Positions 35,814 to 44,458 of a DNA stretch of 64,000 nucleotides are shown in pieces. Position numbers and translations under genes: made by a program. Within the stretch, counting starts at the first letter, position 1. Each line of letters opens with the position of its first letter. Source of the DNA: an uncultured Clostridia bacterium. Lineage in GTDB: Bacteria; Bacillota; Clostridia; Christensenellales; CAG-314. The stretch is from the NCBI GenBank assembly GCA_947625115.1, contig CANQND010000006.1, positions 72 through 64,071 on the forward strand, in the 5' to 3' direction. Below the pieces are notes generated by a model, which had not been told where the DNA came from, searched no databases, and worked only from the letters and a program-made list of their open reading frames with translations.

Positions 35814-36386
35814 CTATTTCTTGTTTTCTTTTAGCAACTCCACTATTTCGCCCAGCAACTGCTGTTCGGTTTTGGGAGCGTTTGCCGCGGCTTCTTCGGC
35901 GGCAATACGGTCGGCTTCTTCTTGGGCGGCTTTCTTTGCGGCGGCGGCTGCAAGAATTTCGTCCTTGGTTTTGCCGTCGGCGCGCAACGCTTTAACTTCG
36001 TCGCTTGTGAGGGGAGCGTACTTGCCTTTTTGCTTCTTTACGCCCTCTTGCACGCTGTTAATGGCTTTGACAATGAGGAACAGCACAAACGCTATCAGCA
36101 AAAAGTTGATTATCGCCGTTATAAATGCGCCCCAATCGATGTAGATGGATTGAGTCATATCTACCACTCCGTCCACCTCTACGGGTTTTAGCATTGTAAC
36201 TACGTCGCCCATACCCTCTCCGTGAGTTACAACGGCAAGGAACCAATTGATTACGGGCATCAAAATTTGGTTGGTAAGCGCGGTTACGATCGCGCTGAAC
36301 GCGCCGCCGATGATAACGCCGACAGCCATATCGATGACGTTGCCGCGCATAATGAATTTTTTGAATTCGCCAAAAAATTTCTTCAT
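35814..36386 (-). CDS. mscL: Large-conductance mechanosensitive channel with an extended Ala/Glu/Lys-rich C-terminus
   Basis: MKKFFGEFKKFIMRGNVIDMAVGVIIGGAFSAIVTAL. ATG at 36386. Confidence 0.85.
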   Translation of the reverse strand: MKKFFGEFKKFIMRGNVIDMAVGVIIGGAFSAIVTALTNQILMPVINWFLAVVTHGEGMGDVVTMLKPVEVDGVVDMTQSIYIDWGAFITAIINFLLIAFVLFLIVKAINSVQEGVKKQKGKYAPLTSDEVKALRADGKTKDEILAAAAAKKAAQEEADRIAAEEAAANAPKTEQQLLGEIVELLKENKK

Positions 36387-36512
36387 AACTTCTCCTTTTT
36401 GTAAAAAATTTTGTTTACGCCCATAGTATAGCACCGCACAGCAGTTTTTTCAAGCGGTTTTTGCCAACAAAAGAATGTTGCGCGCACAAGTTGATAAAAT
36501 TTGCTCAATCGG

Positions 36513-36541
36513 TTGCAAAAACGTACGCAATCTTGTATAAT
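36513..36541 (+). promoter_or_regulatory. Sigma-A-type promoter of tRNA-Pro
   Basis: TTGCAA (36513-36518), 17-nt spacer, TATAAT (36536-36541). Confidence 0.6.
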
Positions 36542-36585
36542 AGTAGGGCAATCGAGGTGTAGCGAAAAGCTCGCAATCGATTTTA

Positions 36586-36661
36586 CGAGGTGTAGCGCAG
36601 TTGGTAGCGCGCTTGGTTCGGGACCAAGAGGCCGCTGGTTCGAGTCCAGTCACTTCGACCA
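36586..36661 (+). tRNA. tRNA-Pro (anticodon CGG), CCA encoded
   Basis: Manual cloverleaf. Acceptor CGAGGTG/CACTTCG (one G.U). D-arm GCGC-AGTTGGTA-GCGC. Anticodon arm CTTGG-TTCGGGA-CCAAG. T-arm GCTGG-TTCGAGT-CCAGT. Discriminator A plus CCA. Confidence 0.9.
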
Positions 36662-36696
36662 CAACGCAGGCGACGCCGTTTTAGTCGCAACGAAAA

Positions 36697-36724
36697 AGGA
36701 CACATTTGCTTGCGTCCTTTTTTT
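36697..36724 (+). terminator. Intrinsic terminator after tRNA-Pro
   Basis: aggac..gtcct hairpin, followed by ttttttt. Confidence 0.55.
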
Positions 36725-36849
36725 CGTCGCTTCTTTGGGGCGTGCCTGCCGGGGTCTACGTGACCAGACAGTTCGAAATATGTAACACTCCGCATTTGCT
36801 TCATTTAACTTATTTCTGCAATTAGATATTTGTTGCTTTTTAACCCTGC

Positions 36850-36882
36850 GAGTGCGCTCTGTTAGCAGGGCGGAGCGCACTC
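36850..36882. repeat. Perfect 10-bp inverted repeat with a 13-nt loop
   Basis: gagtgcgctc (36850-36859) and gagcgcactc (36873-36882). Confidence 0.9.
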
Positions 36883-37111
36883 TTGCGCATTCGGCTACCA
36901 ACTGCACACTTTGCAGATTGCTTTCACGCCGAATGTACTTACTTCGACTCCTCTTCGTTCAAACTTATTTCAAAAAAATTAGACTTTAAGGCTGTATTCC
37001 GTAGGGAATCAAAAAACAAAATTTTGGGCAGAATACACTTGGGCCGAGTCAATTGACGCTGACTTCGATTGAAGTCCTGCATTTTTTTCAAGAGCTCGGG
37101 TTTAGCCATAA

Positions 37112-38413
37112 TCAAACAAGTGTATATTTGTCTTTTCGGACATTAAATGCTTCTTTGCCGCCCTCAAGTATTTCACATATATGTCCTTGAATGCCTTTTT
37201 GATTTAATATTCCATTTCTTATTGATCCGTCATTATTTTTTATTATACTATTGTTTTCAATCGATCCAGACCGATACTCAAATCGATAAATTTCGTTAGG
37301 ACTGTTTGCGCCCCTTTGATTAGCTACTATAATTTCTTCAGAGTCCGATCCTAAAACGATATTGGCATTATGCGTGACAATTATGATTTGTCTATCATGT
37401 TTTTTTTGTCTTAGAAAGTCAACCAGTTCATAATAGATTGAACGATTGTCTAAGTCATCTTCCGGTTGATCAATTAGTATAGGACAATCAGAATTTGCTA
37501 AGTTAATAAGCAGTTTCAATAACACTAATGCTTTTTTACCAGGAGACATGGTTTGAATCTTAGGGTTAAAAACAATAGGTGCAGGAGAAAATCTTTCATC
37601 GCTAATCGTAATTTTATCTATTACGTTATAGTCTCTTTTTCTCTCAGGGTAATTATCACAAATTTTAACCCGCTCTTTAGGTTCATATACAATTTGTTTT
37701 AGCCCTTCAAAAGTACAGTCTGCCTTTATCCAACAATATTTATTATTGTTTGGTGCGAAAATGTCAGAGTTTTTATGCGCATCACAGCCATGAACACATG
37801 GTTTTAATCGACCATATTTATGGATTACCTGTTCTTTTGATAGGGGCCCTTCTCCAAGAAAGTATTTAATTGTACTTTCTGTAGCGGAAAAAATTATATC
37901 TGCAAAGTAATTCAAATCGTCTCTGATAACTGTCAGATCAGAATTTGCGTTAGGACGAGAGGGATTACCTATCCCCGAAGTGCCATCGTTTGAACTACTT
38001 GATACAGCAACAATGACATTATCTCTTAAGTCTTTATCATCATCTAATATTTGTTTAAGATTTGATAAGTCTACAACGAACTGGTCAATGCCTTTTTTAT
38101 ATGCCACATCACCTACTAACGATTTATCACATAGTTTCCCGAGCTTATGATCGTCAGCAGGAACTGCTGTTGAATATTCCACCATTAAGACGGGTATTTC
38201 TTCATTACCGCAAACTGAGGTAAGTAAGATGTCTACATCTTTGACTTTTCTAATGCGGTCAATTATAGAATCCGAGCCGACAATTTCACTTCGTAATTTT
38301 TTGGTATAAATGTTTTTGATAGAACATTCTGGAAGAATTTTAGTTATATACTTTTTAAAATCTAATCCCTGCTCCAAAACTTCGGCGTATATTCTCAATT
38401 CAGATATTTTCAT
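37112..38413 (-). CDS. Chimeric 433-aa protein: PD-(D/E)xK-like N-terminus, PHP-domain remnant, ABC/SMC-type ATPase C-lobe without Walker A
   Basis: ATG at 38413 with AAGGAG 8 nt upstream, inside the upstream methyltransferase gene. Motifs: VDILL..VLMVEYS; HGCDAHK plus CWIKADCTFEGLKQIVYEPKERV; SPGKKAL (signature-like); PILIDQPEDDLD (Walker B); IIVTHNANIV. No GxxxxGK[ST] anywhere. Confidence 0.6.
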   Translation of the reverse strand: MKISELRIYAEVLEQGLDFKKYITKILPECSIKNIYTKKLRSEIVGSDSIIDRIRKVKDVDILLTSVCGNEEIPVLMVEYSTAVPADDHKLGKLCDKSLVGDVAYKKGIDQFVVDLSNLKQILDDDKDLRDNVIVAVSSSSNDGTSGIGNPSRPNANSDLTVIRDDLNYFADIIFSATESTIKYFLGEGPLSKEQVIHKYGRLKPCVHGCDAHKNSDIFAPNNNKYCWIKADCTFEGLKQIVYEPKERVKICDNYPERKRDYNVIDKITISDERFSPAPIVFNPKIQTMSPGKKALVLLKLLINLANSDCPILIDQPEDDLDNRSIYYELVDFLRQKKHDRQIIIVTHNANIVLGSDSEEIIVANQRGANSPNEIYRFEYRSGSIENNSIIKNNDGSIRNGILNQKGIQGHICEILEGGKEAFNVRKDKYTLV

Positions 38414-39521
38414 TGTTGTTCTCCTTTTCAAAAACAAGCACATGCTCTCTTTTATCTTTAGTCCGATATGATTGCTGGAAAGAACGTGAAGTGTCATCTA
38501 GATTGGAAAACGAATAATCAACCACTTTCCATTTCAAAGGTGCCAAAATGTTTATTAAGTTTATTTTAGCGTCGTATTTTTCTCCTTGAATCTTGCCATC
38601 TCCCATTATAATAGCTACCCTCCCACGCGGTTTTAAAAGCCTATTGCAGACCTCAAATATCTGCAATAAATCACGGTTAAATTTCTCTTTTGGTAATTTT
38701 AGGCTTGAATATTCACGTCTGGAGCCTATTTCTAATCTCATAGTAGATTTCACATCATATCCAAGCCAAAACATACGATGTTTATGATATAAATAATAAT
38801 CATAGGTGTTAGGATATGGCGGCGATGTTAAGATAAAATCCACACATCCATATGGGGCAAGTCTATCACTCTCTTTTGCATCACATAAATAAGCTTCGTT
38901 TTTTTCTGTCGGACCTCGAAGTTTATTGAATTCAACATAGCACGAAAGTATCATTCTAAATTTTTTTACAAAGGTTTCAGCAACAAACGATGTTGATAAA
39001 TACTTTTTTTCAATTGCCGCATACCTCGTATCGCCCTCTTGATTCGATACGGTGTTTATGATGGAAGATAAAACTAGTTTACAAAATGTACGCTGGTTGT
39101 CGTTGGCCAAGAGAGAAATTCTGCTTTTAATACAACTTAAAACCAAAATAGACTCTTTACAGAACCAATGATCAATTGAAGCGTAAGAATAGGGAATTGT
39201 ATGCGATATGTAGTCTTGATAGTTTTCCGTAAAATCGACAACAAAATTATTTAAGGCGACGATATCGTCATCGTTCATAGACAAAAGTTTAAAGTTAGAT
39301 ATAAGAATCGCTATTGGATTAACGTCTGTTCCAAATCCTCTGCGATGCAATACGCTCGTAGCCAATAGCGTGGTGCCCGAACCAAGAAAAGGATCAAAAA
39401 CGAGATCATTTTCTTGGGTGTATTTTTCTATGTATTTAATTGCCGTACCCACGGGAAACTTTGCGGGATACGGATGAATTCTATCGATTTTTCGAAGTAA
39501 ATCCATATCAAAACAAGTCAT
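38400..39521 (-). CDS. SPPY-motif DNA amino-methyltransferase (N4-C or N6-A), motif I upstream of motif IV
   Basis: HPYPAKFP...VFDPFLGSGTTLLA...GTDVNPIA, then DFILTSPPYPNTYDYY. ATGA overlap with the upstream methyltransferase. Confidence 0.8.
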   Translation of the reverse strand: MTCFDMDLLRKIDRIHPYPAKFPVGTAIKYIEKYTQENDLVFDPFLGSGTTLLATSVLHRRGFGTDVNPIAILISNFKLLSMNDDDIVALNNFVVDFTENYQDYISHTIPYSYASIDHWFCKESILVLSCIKSRISLLANDNQRTFCKLVLSSIINTVSNQEGDTRYAAIEKKYLSTSFVAETFVKKFRMILSCYVEFNKLRGPTEKNEAYLCDAKESDRLAPYGCVDFILTSPPYPNTYDYYLYHKHRMFWLGYDVKSTMRLEIGSRREYSSLKLPKEKFNRDLLQIFEVCNRLLKPRGRVAIIMGDGKIQGEKYDAKINLINILAPLKWKVVDYSFSNLDDTSRSFQQSYRTKDKREHVLVFEKENNNENI

Positions 39522-40390
39522 TTGGCTCTCCGCATAATTACTAAATATGAATGGTTTTGATTAACATAAAAAACAGAGGGATAGCCTAAAAGGACAAGCG
39601 AGCGTTGCTCGTTCTGATCCCAAATAATTAAATCATGATAAACAAAACCCGCGTTTGACCCACATTCCGCAATCGCAGAATGCAAATCCACATAAGGAAT
39701 GTTGTTTTTTATATCACGAAAATCTTTCGCAACCCAAACGTTATATCCACCCGGTTTGGTTTTAGTATACAATTTTCTCATGATGCGTAAAACTTTTTCT
39801 TTATACTCTTCAAGTGGCATATTCCCTAAATCATTTTCATTGTTTGAATATATTTTGGTTGTCGCATTATTTTCAGTAACAAACGCCGAGTTTTTGTGCC
39901 GATTTGTTCTGTCATCTACAACCTTATGTATAAGGTCGGCATAAGGCGGCGATGTTAGCGTTAATTGTATAGAATCATTCGGCACTATATCTAATAACAT
40001 TTCACAGTCGCCATTATAAATTTGAAATGAAGTGGTACTCAAAAGGTTAAGTGAATTTTGAACTGCCGCCTGCGCAATTGTGAAGTATTCTTTTGATAAT
40101 TCTATTCCGATGCCAAATCTATTATTTTTTAAAGCAGAAATCAAGGTGGTACCTGTACCCAAAAAAGGGTCCAACACACAATCGCCTTGTTTTGAATACA
40201 TCGAAATTACTCGGTCACACAATTTTTCAGGATAAGTGGCACCGTGCAATAAATGTTGACTTTTCCTCGCAGATGAAACATCATTCCATACACTTCGGCT
40301 ATTTTGAGTCCATTCACGTGCCGTCATTCCATTAAAAGTTTTTGCTCGCTGTTCAATCTCTTTTTTAGTTGTTGTTTCTTTCTGTTCCAT
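39518..40390 (-). CDS. SPPY-motif DNA amino-methyltransferase (N4-C or N6-A), motif I upstream of motif IV
   Basis: HGATYPEKL...VLDPFLGTGTTLISA, then LTLTSPPYADL, and downstream KPGGYNVWV. Confidence 0.8.
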   Translation of the reverse strand: MEQKETTTKKEIEQRAKTFNGMTAREWTQNSRSVWNDVSSARKSQHLLHGATYPEKLCDRVISMYSKQGDCVLDPFLGTGTTLISALKNNRFGIGIELSKEYFTIAQAAVQNSLNLLSTTSFQIYNGDCEMLLDIVPNDSIQLTLTSPPYADLIHKVVDDRTNRHKNSAFVTENNATTKIYSNNENDLGNMPLEEYKEKVLRIMRKLYTKTKPGGYNVWVAKDFRDIKNNIPYVDLHSAIAECGSNAGFVYHDLIIWDQNEQRSLVLLGYPSVFYVNQNHSYLVIMRRAK

Positions 40391-40413
40391 CTAACAAATT
40401 CCTTAATGTAATT

Positions 40414-40442
40414 ATTATACCATATTTTCTTATTTTTTTCAA
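40414..40442 (-). promoter_or_regulatory. Sigma-A-type promoter of the island-2 operon
   Basis: Minus strand: TTGAAA (40442-40437), 17-nt spacer, TATAAT (40419-40414). Confidence 0.55.
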
Positions 40443-40654
40443 CGGTGTTTAAGTCAGTCCTCAAATTTTTTTATGTTTACTTCCAACGAGCGTGAAACTT
40501 GCTTATTGACAAACGAGAGCACGTTGTAGCACTTTCCTTATCCTGCTTCCTCACTGTGGCCGATTTGCCCAGGTCAAAAAATAATAAAACTTTCGATTTA
40601 GTGGATACGAGTTGGCCCAACAATCATCCACTTGTGTGAAATGATGTTGAACGG

Positions 40655-40681
40655 CGGCAAAAAGCATTGATTTTGTGCTAA
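40655..40681 (+). repeat. 27-bp direct repeat, copy 1
   Basis: cggcaaaaagcattgattttgtgctaa, identical to 41542-41568. Confidence 0.95.
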
Positions 40682-40788
40682 GAACACCTTTTCCTATTAC
40701 CGAAAAATATATTTAGAGATATAAAAACGGAGCTGTTGCTTTTGGTAAGAATATCTCTGAAATTTTTGAAAAATGTTGTTAAAAACAG

Positions 40789-40817
40789 TTGACTGCCATT
40801 AGGCACTATGATAGAAT
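40789..40817 (+). promoter_or_regulatory. Sigma-A-type promoter of the 40940 ORF
   Basis: TTGACT (40789-40794), 17-nt spacer, TAGAAT (40812-40817). Confidence 0.55.
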
Positions 40818-40939
40818 TGCGTTGCATTGAAAAACTATGTGCGATGGAGATACTATTGTATCTCTTTTTTTAATGCAAAAATGCAATCTCGGCATAAATG
40901 CGCCAAGAAATATTGTCCCAAAATCAGGAGGAAATAAAT

Positions 40940-41344
40940 ATGGAAGGACAAGGAAAAACAGACAGACACCGAAGTGCGGCGGCAATCAAAACACTAAAAA
41001 CTACCGCAATGATATTGTTCATTGCTTTTGTGGCGGTGGCGTTTATTTACGTCGTCAACGGGTTGTTTAAAGTACCGAGCGTAAACTTTACGTATACGGC
41101 AAGCAGATTGAGCAACGTAAACAACATAAGGCGACAAGCAGATAATACGTTCGCGTGGGATTCCGTCAAACACGCCACATACTACGTTGTGGAAGTAAAC
41201 GGAACGCAATTTACCGTGAATGAATGCCTTTGGCATTGCCCCGACAAAATGAATGTAGAATTCATTCGCGTAAAAGCGGTTGACTCTTCGGGTTGGTACG
41301 GCGAATCCGATTGGACTTACTACGACGGAAGTTCATACAATTGA
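40940..41344 (+). CDS. Single-pass membrane-anchored protein with a small beta-rich (FN3-like) ectodomain
   Basis: ATG at 40940 after AGGAGG. Transmembrane segment AMILFIAFVAVAFIYVV. FAWDSVKHATYYVVEVNG...IRVKAVD pattern. Confidence 0.6.
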   Translation: MEGQGKTDRHRSAAAIKTLKTTAMILFIAFVAVAFIYVVNGLFKVPSVNFTYTASRLSNVNNIRRQADNTFAWDSVKHATYYVVEVNGTQFTVNECLWHCPDKMNVEFIRVKAVDSSGWYGESDWTYYDGSSYN

Positions 41345-41353
41345 TATTTTCCT

Positions 41354-41381
41354 ACGGCTTTTGAAAAAGCCGTTTTTTTTG
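41354..41381 (+). terminator. Intrinsic terminator
   Basis: acggcttt, loop ttga, aaagccgt, followed by tttttttt. Confidence 0.8.
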
Positions 41382-41541
41382 TTTTGTAATCTTACTATGC
41401 AACAGACTGTTTTTCAAAATGCCGCTTAGATGGTAGTACAATATTGCACCCACGACCTGCTTGCCCCGCCGCGGTGCGGGCGACGAGTTTTTGCTTGAAA
41501 AGGCGTTCGACATATTGTTAAACGCAAGGCGCAAAACACGA

Positions 41542-41568
41542 CGGCAAAAAGCATTGATTTTGTGCTAA
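41542..41568 (+). repeat. 27-bp direct repeat, copy 2
   Basis: Identical to 40655-40681. Contains the -35 element of the next promoter. Confidence 0.95.
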
Positions 41569-41582
41569 AAAGGTGTTATACT
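41554..41582 (+). promoter_or_regulatory. Sigma-A-type promoter of the 41617 ORF
   Basis: TTGATT (41554-41559), 17-nt spacer, TATACT (41577-41582). Confidence 0.55.
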
Positions 41583-41616
41583 GTTGCCGAAATATTGGGC
41601 AAGGAGAACGGTAAAA

Positions 41617-42294
41617 ATGAAACTGCGAGTTGTTGGGTGGGTTTGTTACGACGACAACTTTCCCGAGGGGGACAACGGTTGGGCGGCGCGCAACGCGATA
41701 ATAGACGATATACGCAAAAATAAATACGATTTTACAGGGTGGCACCACCAAGAAGGGTATAACTGCACGCCGCTACTTAACGACGGCAAAAAATACTGCT
41801 ATTCGCAACGCGGTTGGGGCGACGTAATGGCGGAGGCACACGGCGATTTCGACGCAATGGGGTACGCAAAATACTTTGTTCTCGACGAGGTGGACGAAAT
41901 GGCGCGGCTGATGAGGCACGATACGTTCACCCGACCGAAACCTATGTGGGGGAAAGTGCCGCCTGTCGAAACGGACTTGAATGAAACTTTTGAATTGCAA
42001 GTTACGCAAGAACAATTTGACAACGCGGCAGACGCGTTGGAAATACGCTTTGGCGACTACAAAGACCTGCGCTATCTGTACAAGGGGGATACCCTCGTGT
42101 TGGTTTGCGGAGATAAACGCGCCGAATACACGGTGACCGACGCAGAACGCAAGCACTTTTCCAACAAGCGAAAACGCAAAGAACTGCTTCCCGAAATGCA
42201 AAGCGAGGATCGCGCGGTTGCAAAGCGCGCTTCCGCCGAGTACAACAAATCCACCTTGGTGTTGGTGGTAAAGTTGGCAAAACCCGAAAAATAG
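41617..42294 (+). CDS. Hypothetical 225-aa protein, no recognised family
   Basis: ATG at 41617 after AAGGAG. Cys/Trp-rich N-terminal half, Lys/Arg/Glu-rich C-terminal tail. Confidence 0.6.
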   Translation: MKLRVVGWVCYDDNFPEGDNGWAARNAIIDDIRKNKYDFTGWHHQEGYNCTPLLNDGKKYCYSQRGWGDVMAEAHGDFDAMGYAKYFVLDEVDEMARLMRHDTFTRPKPMWGKVPPVETDLNETFELQVTQEQFDNAADALEIRFGDYKDLRYLYKGDTLVLVCGDKRAEYTVTDAERKHFSNKRKRKELLPEMQSEDRAVAKRASAEYNKSTLVLVVKLAKPEK

Positions 42295-42484: not shown

Positions 42485-44458
42485 ATGGCAAAAAAAATTA
42501 CTATCGAATTTGACGGAAAGTGGATACTCGAACACCGCGGAGATGAACGTCTGCCCGTGGACAGACTGCGCGACGAATTTGCCGCAAAAAACTTTACTGT
42601 GGAAAGCTACTCCTTTACCACGCTGTGTCTGGTAACGGCGGCAGGGCAGGCAGCCGAACAAGCCGAAGAGGTTGTGCGTTCGGTGATAGAAAGTTTGTAC
42701 CCCGACGAGAACCTTTCGGGCGTGTTTAGCGTTAGCACCGACGAAAATTCCGACGACTTGTTTTCCGAAAAAACGGCTACCGCAACCCAAACTGCGGAAG
42801 CCCCCAAGAAAGCTACGGCAACCGAAGCGGACGGCGTGTTGGCAAAGGTGCAAAAACTTACGGGCGCGGCGGAATTTAAGCAATTGATAGGCGAAATATT
42901 GGCGGTTGCCCCGCAAATTAACAAACAAAACGCACAACGGCTGTTTTACAACCGCAGTTATCTGTTTTCTATCGGGGACGGTTGCGGGCTTAGCACCTAC
43001 CTCGAACTGCTTGCGCAAGCCGTTGCGCAAACGGGTTTGCGCCGTATGCACCCGCGCCCCGTTATCGAAGAGCGACTTGGACCGTACAAAGAAAGTATGG
43101 AACCGTTTGAAGAAGTGTTGAAAACTTTGCAAAACGGCGACAGCGACCGCGTACGCGTGCTGTGCATAGACATAAACGAGTGGCTCAACAAAACGGGTAC
43201 GCAATATTTCAGACTGTTTTTGCGCGCGATAGAAAAATCTGCGGAAGAGTTTATCGTGGTGTTCCGCGTGGCGTTTTTGGATAAGGCGGTGCTGAGCGAC
43301 CTCGGATATTCTCTGAACGATCAGTTGAGCGTAAAAACCATATCTTTCCCGCCGTTCAGCAGCGAAGAACTGCGCGATTGCGCGCAACGGGATCTTGCCG
43401 AATACGGCTACGAGATGTCGCCGAAAGGGTGGGCGTTTTTCCAACAACGCCTGACGGAAGAAAAGAGCGACGGCAAGTTTTACGGTTTGAGTACCGTCAA
43501 AAAGGTGGTAAGAGAGCTTGTCTACAACAAAATGCTTTCCAACGTGCGCCGCAACAGCGACGACAAAGTTATTTCCGCAAGCGAGGCGAAATCTCTTTGC
43601 CGAGTGAAGCCCGACCAACTTTCCGGCGAGGAACAGCTCAACAAACTTGTGGGCAACGAAGAAGTAAAAAAGAAGATAAACGAAATTTTGGCGCAAATAG
43701 AGCTTGCAATGAGCAACGAATCGGAAGAACGCCCCTGTATCCATATGAGATTTGTGGGTAACCCGGGAACGGGCAAAACCACCGTGGCGCGGATATTGGG
43801 AAAAATTCTCAAAGAAAGGGGCGTACTGCGCGTAGGCAATTTCTACGAGTACGCGGGGCGCGACTTTTGCGGACGTTACATAGGCGAAACCGCTCCGAAA
43901 ACGGCAAGCATTTGCCGCGACGCCTACGGCTCGGTGCTGTTCATCGACGAGGCGTACTCGCTCTACCGCGGCGACGGCAACGACAGAGATTTCGGCAGGG
44001 AAGCCTTGGACACGTTGATCGCGGAAATGGAAAACCATCGCAACGATTTCGTTGTTATTATGGCGGGCTACACCGACGATATGGACAAGTTGATGAAAGG
44101 CAACCACGGCTTGGCAAGCAGAATGCCCTACACTATCGAGTTCCCCAACTTTACGCGCGATCAACTTTATATGATATTTGAATCGCTGGTAAAAACGCGC
44201 TTCAAGTACGACGACGACTTGTTGGAAAGAGCGAAAAACTTCTTTACCGCTTTGCCCAACGACGTGATAAACGCAAAAGAATTCAGCAATGCGCGCTTTG
44301 TGCGCAACTTGTTTGAACGCACTTGGGCTAAGGCGGCTATGCGCTGTCAGCTTGCCCGCGCAAAGGACGTGGTGTTGACTAAGGACGACTTCGAGCGCGC
44401 CTGCGGCGAAAAGGAGTTTGCCCTCAGCGTCCACCGCAAACCTCAAATAGGATTTTAA
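42485..44458 (+). CDS. SpoVK/CbbX-type AAA+ ATPase with a degenerate N-terminal AAA-like module
   Basis: Walker A VGNPGTGKTTVARILG, Walker B VLFIDEAYSL, VIMAGYTDDM. An upstream module shows GDGCGLST and VLCIDINEW at the equivalent positions. Confidence 0.85.
   Translation: MAKKITIEFDGKWILEHRGDERLPVDRLRDEFAAKNFTVESYSFTTLCLVTAAGQAAEQAEEVVRSVIESLYPDENLSGVFSVSTDENSDDLFSEKTATATQTAEAPKKATATEADGVLAKVQKLTGAAEFKQLIGEILAVAPQINKQNAQRLFYNRSYLFSIGDGCGLSTYLELLAQAVAQTGLRRMHPRPVIEERLGPYKESMEPFEEVLKTLQNGDSDRVRVLCIDINEWLNKTGTQYFRLFLRAIEKSAEEFIVVFRVAFLDKAVLSDLGYSLNDQLSVKTISFPPFSSEELRDCAQRDLAEYGYEMSPKGWAFFQQRLTEEKSDGKFYGLSTVKKVVRELVYNKMLSNVRRNSDDKVISASEAKSLCRVKPDQLSGEEQLNKLVGNEEVKKKINEILAQIELAMSNESEERPCIHMRFVGNPGTGKTTVARILGKILKERGVLRVGNFYEYAGRDFCGRYIGETAPKTASICRDAYGSVLFIDEAYSLYRGDGNDRDFGREALDTLIAEMENHRNDFVVIMAGYTDDMDKLMKGNHGLASRMPYTIEFPNFTRDQLYMIFESLVKTRFKYDDDLLERAKNFFTALPNDVINAKEFSNARFVRNLFERTWAKAAMRCQLARAKDVVLTKDDFERACGEKEFALSVHRKPQIGF

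Follow-up and report, generated by a model that had tools for sequence, protein, structure and literature searches.

What kind of system is encoded by a block of AT-rich DNA that carries two DNA methyltransferase genes of seemingly unusual motif order, followed by a third gene in which no nuclease can be recognised at first reading? The question is raised by a 64,000-nucleotide stretch of contig CANQND010000006.1 from an uncultured Clostridia bacterium, here called the window, in which such a block lies beside a gene for tRNA-Pro(CGG). The initial annotation described three overlapping open reading frames (ORFs) in the block, which we refer to as M1, M2 and ORF3, and took them for a modification module of permuted architecture whose partner gene is not recognisable as a restriction enzyme. 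We arrive at a different view of both the architecture and the partner: the segment at approximately 36.8-40.75 kb is very probably a Type IIS restriction-modification operon, similar in kind to BsmI/Mva1269I, that was acquired horizontally and has lost its nuclease.

All three genes lie on the minus strand, with M1 (39518-40390) encoding an amino-methyltransferase of 290 amino acids (aa), M2 (38400-39521) one of 373 aa, and ORF3 (37112-38413) a frame of 433 aa. Their overlaps are exactly as first described: M1 and M2 share the ATGA at 39518-39521, and M2 and ORF3 share 14 nt at 38400-38413. The single promoter proposed upstream of M1, TTGAAA-17-TGnTATAAT on the minus strand (40442-40414), is also the best-scoring site in a scan of 36400-41500, agreeing with the consensus at 11 of 12 positions; it is a consensus match only.

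The key to the locus is ORF3, which consists of three pieces joined in frame. The first, codons 1 to ~90 (38146-38413, minus strand), is the remnant of a BsmI-like endonuclease gene, recognised both from protein sequence, where it resembles the start of the third gene product of operons in other genomes, and from homology at the DNA level. The second (37568-38145, minus strand) is a fragment of a TrlF-family gene comprising the C-terminal part of the PHP region and the start of the ATPase, equivalent to residues 144-347 of the TrlF-family protein P0361, and the third (37112-37567, minus strand) is another TrlF-family fragment, a C-terminal lobe with the ABC-type signature, Walker B and H-loop, equivalent to residues 774-924 of the same protein. 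The junction between the two TrlF fragments is ambiguous over 37538-37567. The other breakpoint can be read from the DNA: homology to the intact operons spans ~40486 down to 38145, at 92% identity to L011 and L015 and 75% to L005, and its end at 38145 corresponds to codon 90 of the endonuclease gene.

At the protein level, residues 1-93 of ORF3 are 78% identical to the N-terminus of the third gene product of L005, 58% to that of L008 and 89% to residues 1-93 of P0242, another member of the third-gene family, and residues 4-113 match the PADLOC model REase_II PDLC03439 with E=4.2e-14. The stub keeps D61 and E79 of the bottom-strand site. In place of Q92-R93 it has G-K, and nothing is left of the top-strand site D460...E477-x-K479; the window's endonuclease copy ends at K90 and residues 94-595 are absent, leaving neither of the two active sites complete. 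The rest of ORF3 tells a similar story. In a search of 1.84 billion representative proteins its homologs were proteins of ~900-990 aa that aligned in two separate stretches, the closest being P0361 (924 aa). Residues 90-298 of ORF3 align with residues 144-356 of P0361 at 62% identity by BLASTP (144-347 at 63% by tblastn), the clear homology of this stretch reaching to about P0361 residue 347, and residues 283-433 align with 774-924 at 85% identity. Missing are the first ~143 PHP residues and ~430 internal residues including Walker A. ORF3 matches the NCBIfam model NF045780 (TrlF_fam_ATP) with E=3.2e-92 and the PADLOC model Ppl with E=1.6e-17, but its 310.8 bits for the former are below the cut-off of 350, and with ~340 of ~924 residues left it is not a full-length member of the family. 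No other copy of either the endonuclease gene or the TrlF gene is present in the 64-kb window. Judged by its sequence, ORF3 is almost certainly non-functional, in effect a pseudogene, and its mosaic makeup explains why no nuclease could be recognised at first reading. The partner that could not be recognised as a restriction enzyme is on this evidence a chimeric remnant and not an unusual nuclease.

What the gene looked like before it was truncated can be seen in other genomes. At least eight other loci carry the same M1-M2 pair followed by a third gene, in the same order and usually overlapping (L005-L007, L008-L010, L011-L015, L073 on the Helicobacter plasmid NZ_AP024817, L074 and L075), and every other fetched locus with an M1 homolog also has M2 and the third gene. 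The sizes are ~290-308 aa for M1, ~345-373 aa for M2 and 586-596 aa for the third gene where complete. The operon sits in unrelated contexts, some of them with serine recombinase, relaxase or integrase genes: in L008-L010 it is part of an element that also carries serine recombinase and relaxase genes, and in L075 it adjoins integrase, recombinase and AIPR genes.

A search with the third-gene family gave 276 matches at E<=0.001; among the 120 listed, almost every protein is 591-600 aa long, and none has an informative name. An intact third gene has no match in Pfam or in a sequence search of the PDB. P0242 does match PADLOC REase_II PDLC03439 over residues 4-547 (E=4.6e-66), and its AlphaFold model, calculated from an alignment of 31 sequences, is of high quality (pLDDT 89.9, pTM 0.90). 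When this model was searched with Foldseek, the only significant PDB matches were four structures of BsmI (9f38, 9ez7, 9ez5, 9ezd), with E-values from 2e-14 (2.2e-14 for the best) to 1e-12, probability 1.00 and TM scores of 0.43-0.48; the next PDB match has E ~0.05. The modelled fold thus has the three domains of BsmI, and the family also has both catalytic motifs, since D61-X17-E79-X12-Q92-R93 and D460-X16-E477-C-K479 are invariant in 31 intact relatives.

These spacings can be compared directly with those published for the group of BsmI, Mva1269I, BsrI, BtsCI, BsrDI and BtsI, whose bottom-strand site is PD-X13-18-E-X12-QR and whose top-strand site is PD-X12-17-EXK, each site cutting one strand of an asymmetric target (PMC1950550, PMC2831314, PMC11889245). 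Given the modelled fold and the motifs, the third gene of the intact relatives is predicted to encode a Type IIS endonuclease of this group, sharing its fold and both catalytic motifs with the published spacings. The methyltransferase genes fit as well: BsrDI and BtsI, which are split versions within the group, are each accompanied by two methyltransferases (PMC1950550), encoded by separate genes as in the operon family studied here. BsmI itself differs in length (667-676 residues in the PDB chains versus ~595 aa) and is only 12-13% identical, and the window's copy in addition is cut after codon 90. We had also considered that the family might be HpyC1I/BccI-like; literature searches on this point, and on TrlF, returned unrelated papers only, and the idea was dropped.

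The operons of other genomes also show variation of their own. In L005-L007 the third gene (L005:9978-11519) encodes 513 aa and lacks the C-terminal ~80 residues, so that the nuclease of this family may have been attenuated a second time, independently. Directly upstream of M1 in L008 (L008:7792-7995), and also in L009 and L010, there is a 67-aa HTH_26 gene resembling those of controller (C) proteins; an ORF of this type upstream of M1 is absent from the window and from L011/L015. Finally, genes of defence type often follow the intact operons, such as a 1407-aa NACHT/STAND-like ATPase (L008:11851-16074) and AIPR (L075:10000-11670), and at L011:4111-6030 the operon is followed by a gene for a HATPase_c_3 protein. 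Such neighbours suggest a module that tends to travel in defence islands, and the TrlF remnant of the window fits this picture.

We now turn to the two methyltransferases. M1 matches PF01555 (N6_N4_Mtase) with E=3.4e-27 and 96.3 bits and M2 with E=6.6e-21 and 75.7 bits, both well above the cut-off of 26.7, and both have DPFLGxGTT and SPPY, as expected for members of this amino-methyltransferase family. In each of them the PF01555 match falls into two pieces in reversed order. Specifically, M1 has motif I (DPFLGTGTT) at residues 74-82 and motif IV (SPPY) at 147-150, with a gap of ~65 aa, and M2 has motif X (YPAKFP) at 18-23, motif I (DPFLGSGTT) at 43-51 and SPPY at 233-236, with a gap of ~181 aa. 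When solved beta-class enzymes are used for comparison (TTHA0409, 2zie; the N4-cytosine enzyme 8s9n; M.PvuII), their C-terminal motif X/I region pairs with the N-terminal end of both proteins, and their N-terminal SPPY region aligns further downstream. The motif positions and the reversed alignments confirm the observation of the initial annotation that motif I precedes motif IV in both proteins, and the same evidence places both outside the beta class (class B). The (H/Y)P(A)xFP form of motif X that had been noted for both is found literally in M2, but M1 has a variant, HGATYPEKL, in its place. M1 and M2 are distant co-linear paralogs, with an extra insert in M2 between the two motif blocks. 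Searches with either one gave over 1,600 relatives at E<=0.001, of which many are 55-80% identical.

Genuine as this order of the motifs is, it has been seen before. Motif I ahead of motif IV can be regarded as the canonical order of Rossmann methyltransferases, with the beta class as the permuted form, and both proteins belong to topology classes that have been described. Class D has motif I, an insert of more than 150 aa and then motif IV, i.e., the alpha order, and is detected by beta profiles in two pieces; class E has fewer than 100 aa between motif I and the following motif IV, its motifs are of beta type, and a recognition domain is not inserted (bioRxiv 10.1101/2023.12.13.571470). Judged by motif spacing, the ~181 aa of M2 put it in alpha/class D, together with M.CbeI (an m4C enzyme) and the Dam-type enzymes, with which it shares the arrangement of motifs X-I, a ~180-aa insert and motif IV as well as the detection by beta profiles in two pieces. 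The Dam-type enzymes differ from M2 in their Pfam family, the D12-class one, since M2 matches PF01555 instead. The founders of class E are the experimentally confirmed M1.BcnI and M4.BstF5I (Samokhina and Alexeevski, bioRxiv 10.1101/2023.12.13.571470). M1 resembles them in motif order, in its 65-aa gap, in the combination of DPFxGxGTT with SPPY and in having no inserted recognition domain, and it is set in this class by the published criteria.

Two further results bear on this classification. M1 is aligned co-linearly by the PADLOC model MTase_II PDLC03363 over residues 16-275 (E=1.4e-38) and M2 by MTase_II PDLC03364 over residues 11-366 (E=1.9e-48); alignment in one piece means that families with this motif order are already in the reference sets, and the idea of a novel permuted architecture is accordingly abandoned. 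In the AlphaFold model of M1 (pLDDT 77.7, pTM 0.80) the strands follow one another in unpermuted Rossmann order through to the C-terminus, and there is no extra domain. Its best sequential matches in Foldseek are the unpermuted enzymes Trm11, Trm14 and the rRNA m4,2C synthase. The other part of the initial proposal, a Type II/IIS modification module with two DNA amino-methyltransferases, is supported.

In contrast to the endonuclease gene, both methyltransferase genes are full length, and they keep all residues that are invariant in their families, including motifs I and IV. M1 is 97% and M2 91% identical to copies that still stand beside an intact endonuclease gene. The ratio of nonsynonymous to synonymous substitution rates (dN/dS) is 0.07 for M1 and 0.11-0.12 for M2, calculated against L011 and L015 only because the comparison with L005 is saturated at synonymous sites. 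These low values would normally be taken as a sign of selection, but the dead endonuclease stub gives an equally low one (0.10). The signal must therefore predate the deletion and says nothing about current selection, so we set dN/dS aside as a test of whether M1 and M2 are now being maintained. On their sequences, M1 and M2 are most likely a solitary ('orphan') pair by now, one that continues to methylate the former target. The SPPY motif suggests N4-cytosine methylation, and with SPPY in both proteins the product is probably N4-methylcytosine, a prediction that we offer only as a lead. The locus resembles other cases in which orphan methyltransferases arise through the decay of a restriction-modification system, in that intact methyltransferases stand beside a disrupted cognate endonuclease gene. 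It differs from the usual case in keeping two methyltransferases together and in having the endonuclease stub fused in frame to the remnant of a defence gene.

How might this state have arisen? In the intact form, one promoter would drive M1, M2 and the third gene. By analogy with BsrDI and BtsI, M1 and M2 would each protect one strand of an asymmetric site, and the third gene would supply a monomeric endonuclease of ~595 aa whose two active sites differ from each other and nick one strand each. In the genome of the window, a deletion would then have taken away the endonuclease gene from codon 91 onward and joined the stub in frame to a TrlF-family PHP-ATPase gene, which may already have been damaged or may have been damaged simultaneously. 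M1 and M2, with frames, catalytic motifs and promoter intact, would remain as a solitary pair. The TrlF-family PHP-ATPases and the anti-phage protein Ppl are the closest known systems to this second part of the fusion, residues 90-433 of ORF3 being 62-85% identical to parts of the 924-aa member, though ORF3 differs from them in lacking the N-terminal PHP part, Walker A and the coiled-coil region.

The block is foreign to the genome in which it is found. In 500-bp windows its GC content is 0.33-0.39 across ~36750-41000, versus 0.45-0.59 in both flanks, in agreement with the AT-rich block that had been placed at ~36725-40900 beside tRNA-Pro(CGG), and synteny narrows this to a strain-specific low-GC segment, the restriction-modification remnant island, at ~36804-40746. 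The relatives used for this comparison are 45 loci in metagenome-assembled genomes of uncultured gut Clostridia (rabbit 'Lapin', ruminant and mouse), taken from a species-representative collection, with 64-78% PepV identity. Homology to them ends at ~36803 and resumes at 40747 in L028 and, in several relatives, near the epimerase gene at 45.5 kb. The relatives keep RadC and PepV, and many of them also MscL. A tRNA-Pro(CGG) gene is close by in most of the 12 loci scanned for tRNAs, and the same tRNA-Pro follows MscL in L016, L018, L039, L028 and L053. In the window this gene (36586-36661, plus strand; found by ARAGORN, and by Rfam RF00005 with 67.8 bits) is the conserved left anchor of a variable slot: between it and a conserved 511-aa epimerase-family gene, each relative has different, often low-GC cargo, and M1, M2 and ORF3 are found in none of the 45 loci.

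A slot at tRNA-Pro with cargo that differs between relatives supports horizontal acquisition, and the presence/absence check that had been suggested for the island shows that it is not core. The inference of horizontal acquisition from the position beside a tRNA gene thus holds in so far as the block is foreign and accessory, but it is not a classical tRNA-integrating island. The ORF list of the window contains no integrase or transposase in the block, as previously noted. No direct repeat of the tRNA 3' end exists within 36300-41600, a search for inverted repeats bounding the island gave none that is convincing, and an Rfam scan of 30-46 kb gave nothing besides the tRNA. Among the slot ORFs of the relatives, whose cargo was not scanned against protein families, we noticed no integrase, and where we looked for a clean empty site in the nearest relatives we found the variable slot instead. 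The block is therefore a foreign segment in a variable slot, without integrase or att signature.

Several observations weigh against the reading of a BsmI-kind operon that has lost its nuclease, and they have to be considered together with the alternatives to which they lend support. ORF3 is open through two in-frame junctions, for which the chance is ~1 in 9, and it is still translationally coupled to M2. The likeness to BsmI is structural only, with 12-13% identity and a TM score of ~0.47, and it was established for P0242 rather than for the window's own gene. The low dN/dS of the stub, discussed above, belongs here too. So does the fold of M1, since the solved structures that it matches best in linear order are those of enzymes that methylate RNA (Trm11 and the m4,2C rRNA synthase). 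The state of ORF3 could mean that the module is complete but unusual, with ORF3 as a working, non-canonical effector, a nuclease of PHP/ABC-ATPase type accompanied by two methyltransferases. This would account for an uninterrupted frame of 433 aa that overlaps M2 by 14 nt, for the matches to TrlF/Ppl-type defence ATPases, and for the preservation of ORF3 in identical form in three independent assemblies. However, the N-terminus of this supposed effector is a 90-residue stub of a different protein; the ~143 N-terminal PHP residues and the ~430 residues that include Walker A are gone; the score of 310.8 bits falls short of the TrlF cut-off of 350; and the other M1-M2 loci examined all have a homolog of the ~595-aa endonuclease gene instead, and the TrlF homologs found are ~900-990 aa long. 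We therefore regard a working effector as highly improbable. The open frame, the coupling to M2 and the identical sequence in several samples could alternatively be due to ORF3 being no recent scar but an expressed neo-protein kept for some function, for example to modulate M1/M2 or to interfere with incoming TrlF or BsmI-like systems, which strikes us as a very unlikely outcome. That the chimera is an artefact is a natural concern for a metagenomic contig assembled at ~6.7x coverage. Three independent Logan sample assemblies (L002-L004) are, however, 100% identical to the window over 36900-38600, a region that includes both junctions, and this identity shows that the mosaic is no assembly artefact, making such an origin next to inconceivable. 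A fourth sequence with the same 100% identity, L001, is not independent, being the ENA copy of the contig from which the window is taken.

For the methyltransferases the alternatives concern what they act on and whether they act at all. The fold matches of M1 to Trm11, Trm14 and the rRNA m4,2C synthase, along with weak sequence matches to UPF0020 and Trm14, would be expected if M1 or M2, or both, were RNA or protein methyltransferases. The sequence profiles point the other way, with E=3e-27 and 7e-21 for the 'DNA methylase' family PF01555 versus E=0.056 for UPF0020, and with co-linear alignments at E=1e-38 and 2e-48 to the Type II methyltransferase models of PADLOC. In addition, whether in gut contigs of Clostridia type or on the plasmid from Helicobacter, the genes always share an operon with the gene for a BsmI-like endonuclease. 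No structure of a class E DNA methyltransferase is among those solved (bioRxiv 10.1101/2023.12.13.571470), so that Foldseek can return only unpermuted RNA enzymes for such a protein. The candidate assignment of M1 as an RNA methyltransferase was rejected on the profile and operon evidence, and we consider an RNA or protein substrate for either enzyme extremely improbable. It is also conceivable that the whole block is dead, with M1 and M2 no longer expressed or active and the segment decaying. Once the nuclease was lost nothing would force the methyltransferases to be retained, and the dN/dS signal cannot be dated after the deletion. What speaks against this are the two full-length frames with every family-invariant residue in place, the promoter-like site close to the consensus, and the 97% and 91% identity to copies beside an intact endonuclease gene. 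We think that a dead block is unlikely, and continue to favour a former Type IIS operon in which the nuclease is lost and the methyltransferase pair remains.

Some features of the surrounding sequence are worth recording in their own right. The cargo of the slot ranges from ~0.6 kb to 7 kb among L018, L028, L039, L045 and L053, with the slot of the window at ~36.66-45.5 kb, and the position looks like a hot spot for accessory and defence genes. A 657-aa SpoVK-like AAA ATPase at 42485-44458 has weak PADLOC matches to DolB, IetA and PDC-M37B (E=3.5e-9 to 1e-3); none of the 45 loci was found to have its gene in the 10 kb around PepV, and it may be further cargo of the slot. The sequence immediately 3' of tRNA-Pro (36662-36803) is backbone outside the insert, with 75-88% blastn identity to L039, L052, L019 and L017 that ends at 36791-36803. 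Within these conserved ~140 nt there is a terminator-like hairpin near 36691-36730, and in L017 their counterpart is displaced and inverted (15854-15709). Their role could be that of a conserved terminator or leader, they could encode a small RNA, or recombination could target them and so define where the variable slot lies. At the other end, a 58-nt direct repeat with 81% identity (40651-40708 and 41538-41595) has its copies upstream of two plus-strand genes, 40898-41344 (148 aa) and 41584-42294 (236 aa), which suggests a common promoter or operator region.

The answer to the question raised by this locus is that it holds a Type IIS restriction-modification system of a known kind, in a decayed state. 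What appeared odd about it is thereby cleared up: the 'permuted' methyltransferases fall into classes already described, and what looked like a 'missing nuclease' is the scar of a deletion. Its intact relatives make up a large family of BsmI-like, two-site Type IIS endonucleases, as predicted from fold and motifs, that is without Pfam annotation, and each member examined in its genomic context is accompanied by a class E and a class D methyltransferase. Strand-specific nicking enzymes have been made by engineering members of the BsmI group (PMC2831314, PMC1950550), and a new specificity from this family would therefore be useful. The locus itself offers a clean natural example of a restriction-modification system that is most likely becoming a solitary methyltransferase pair, in a variable defence slot beside a tRNA gene.

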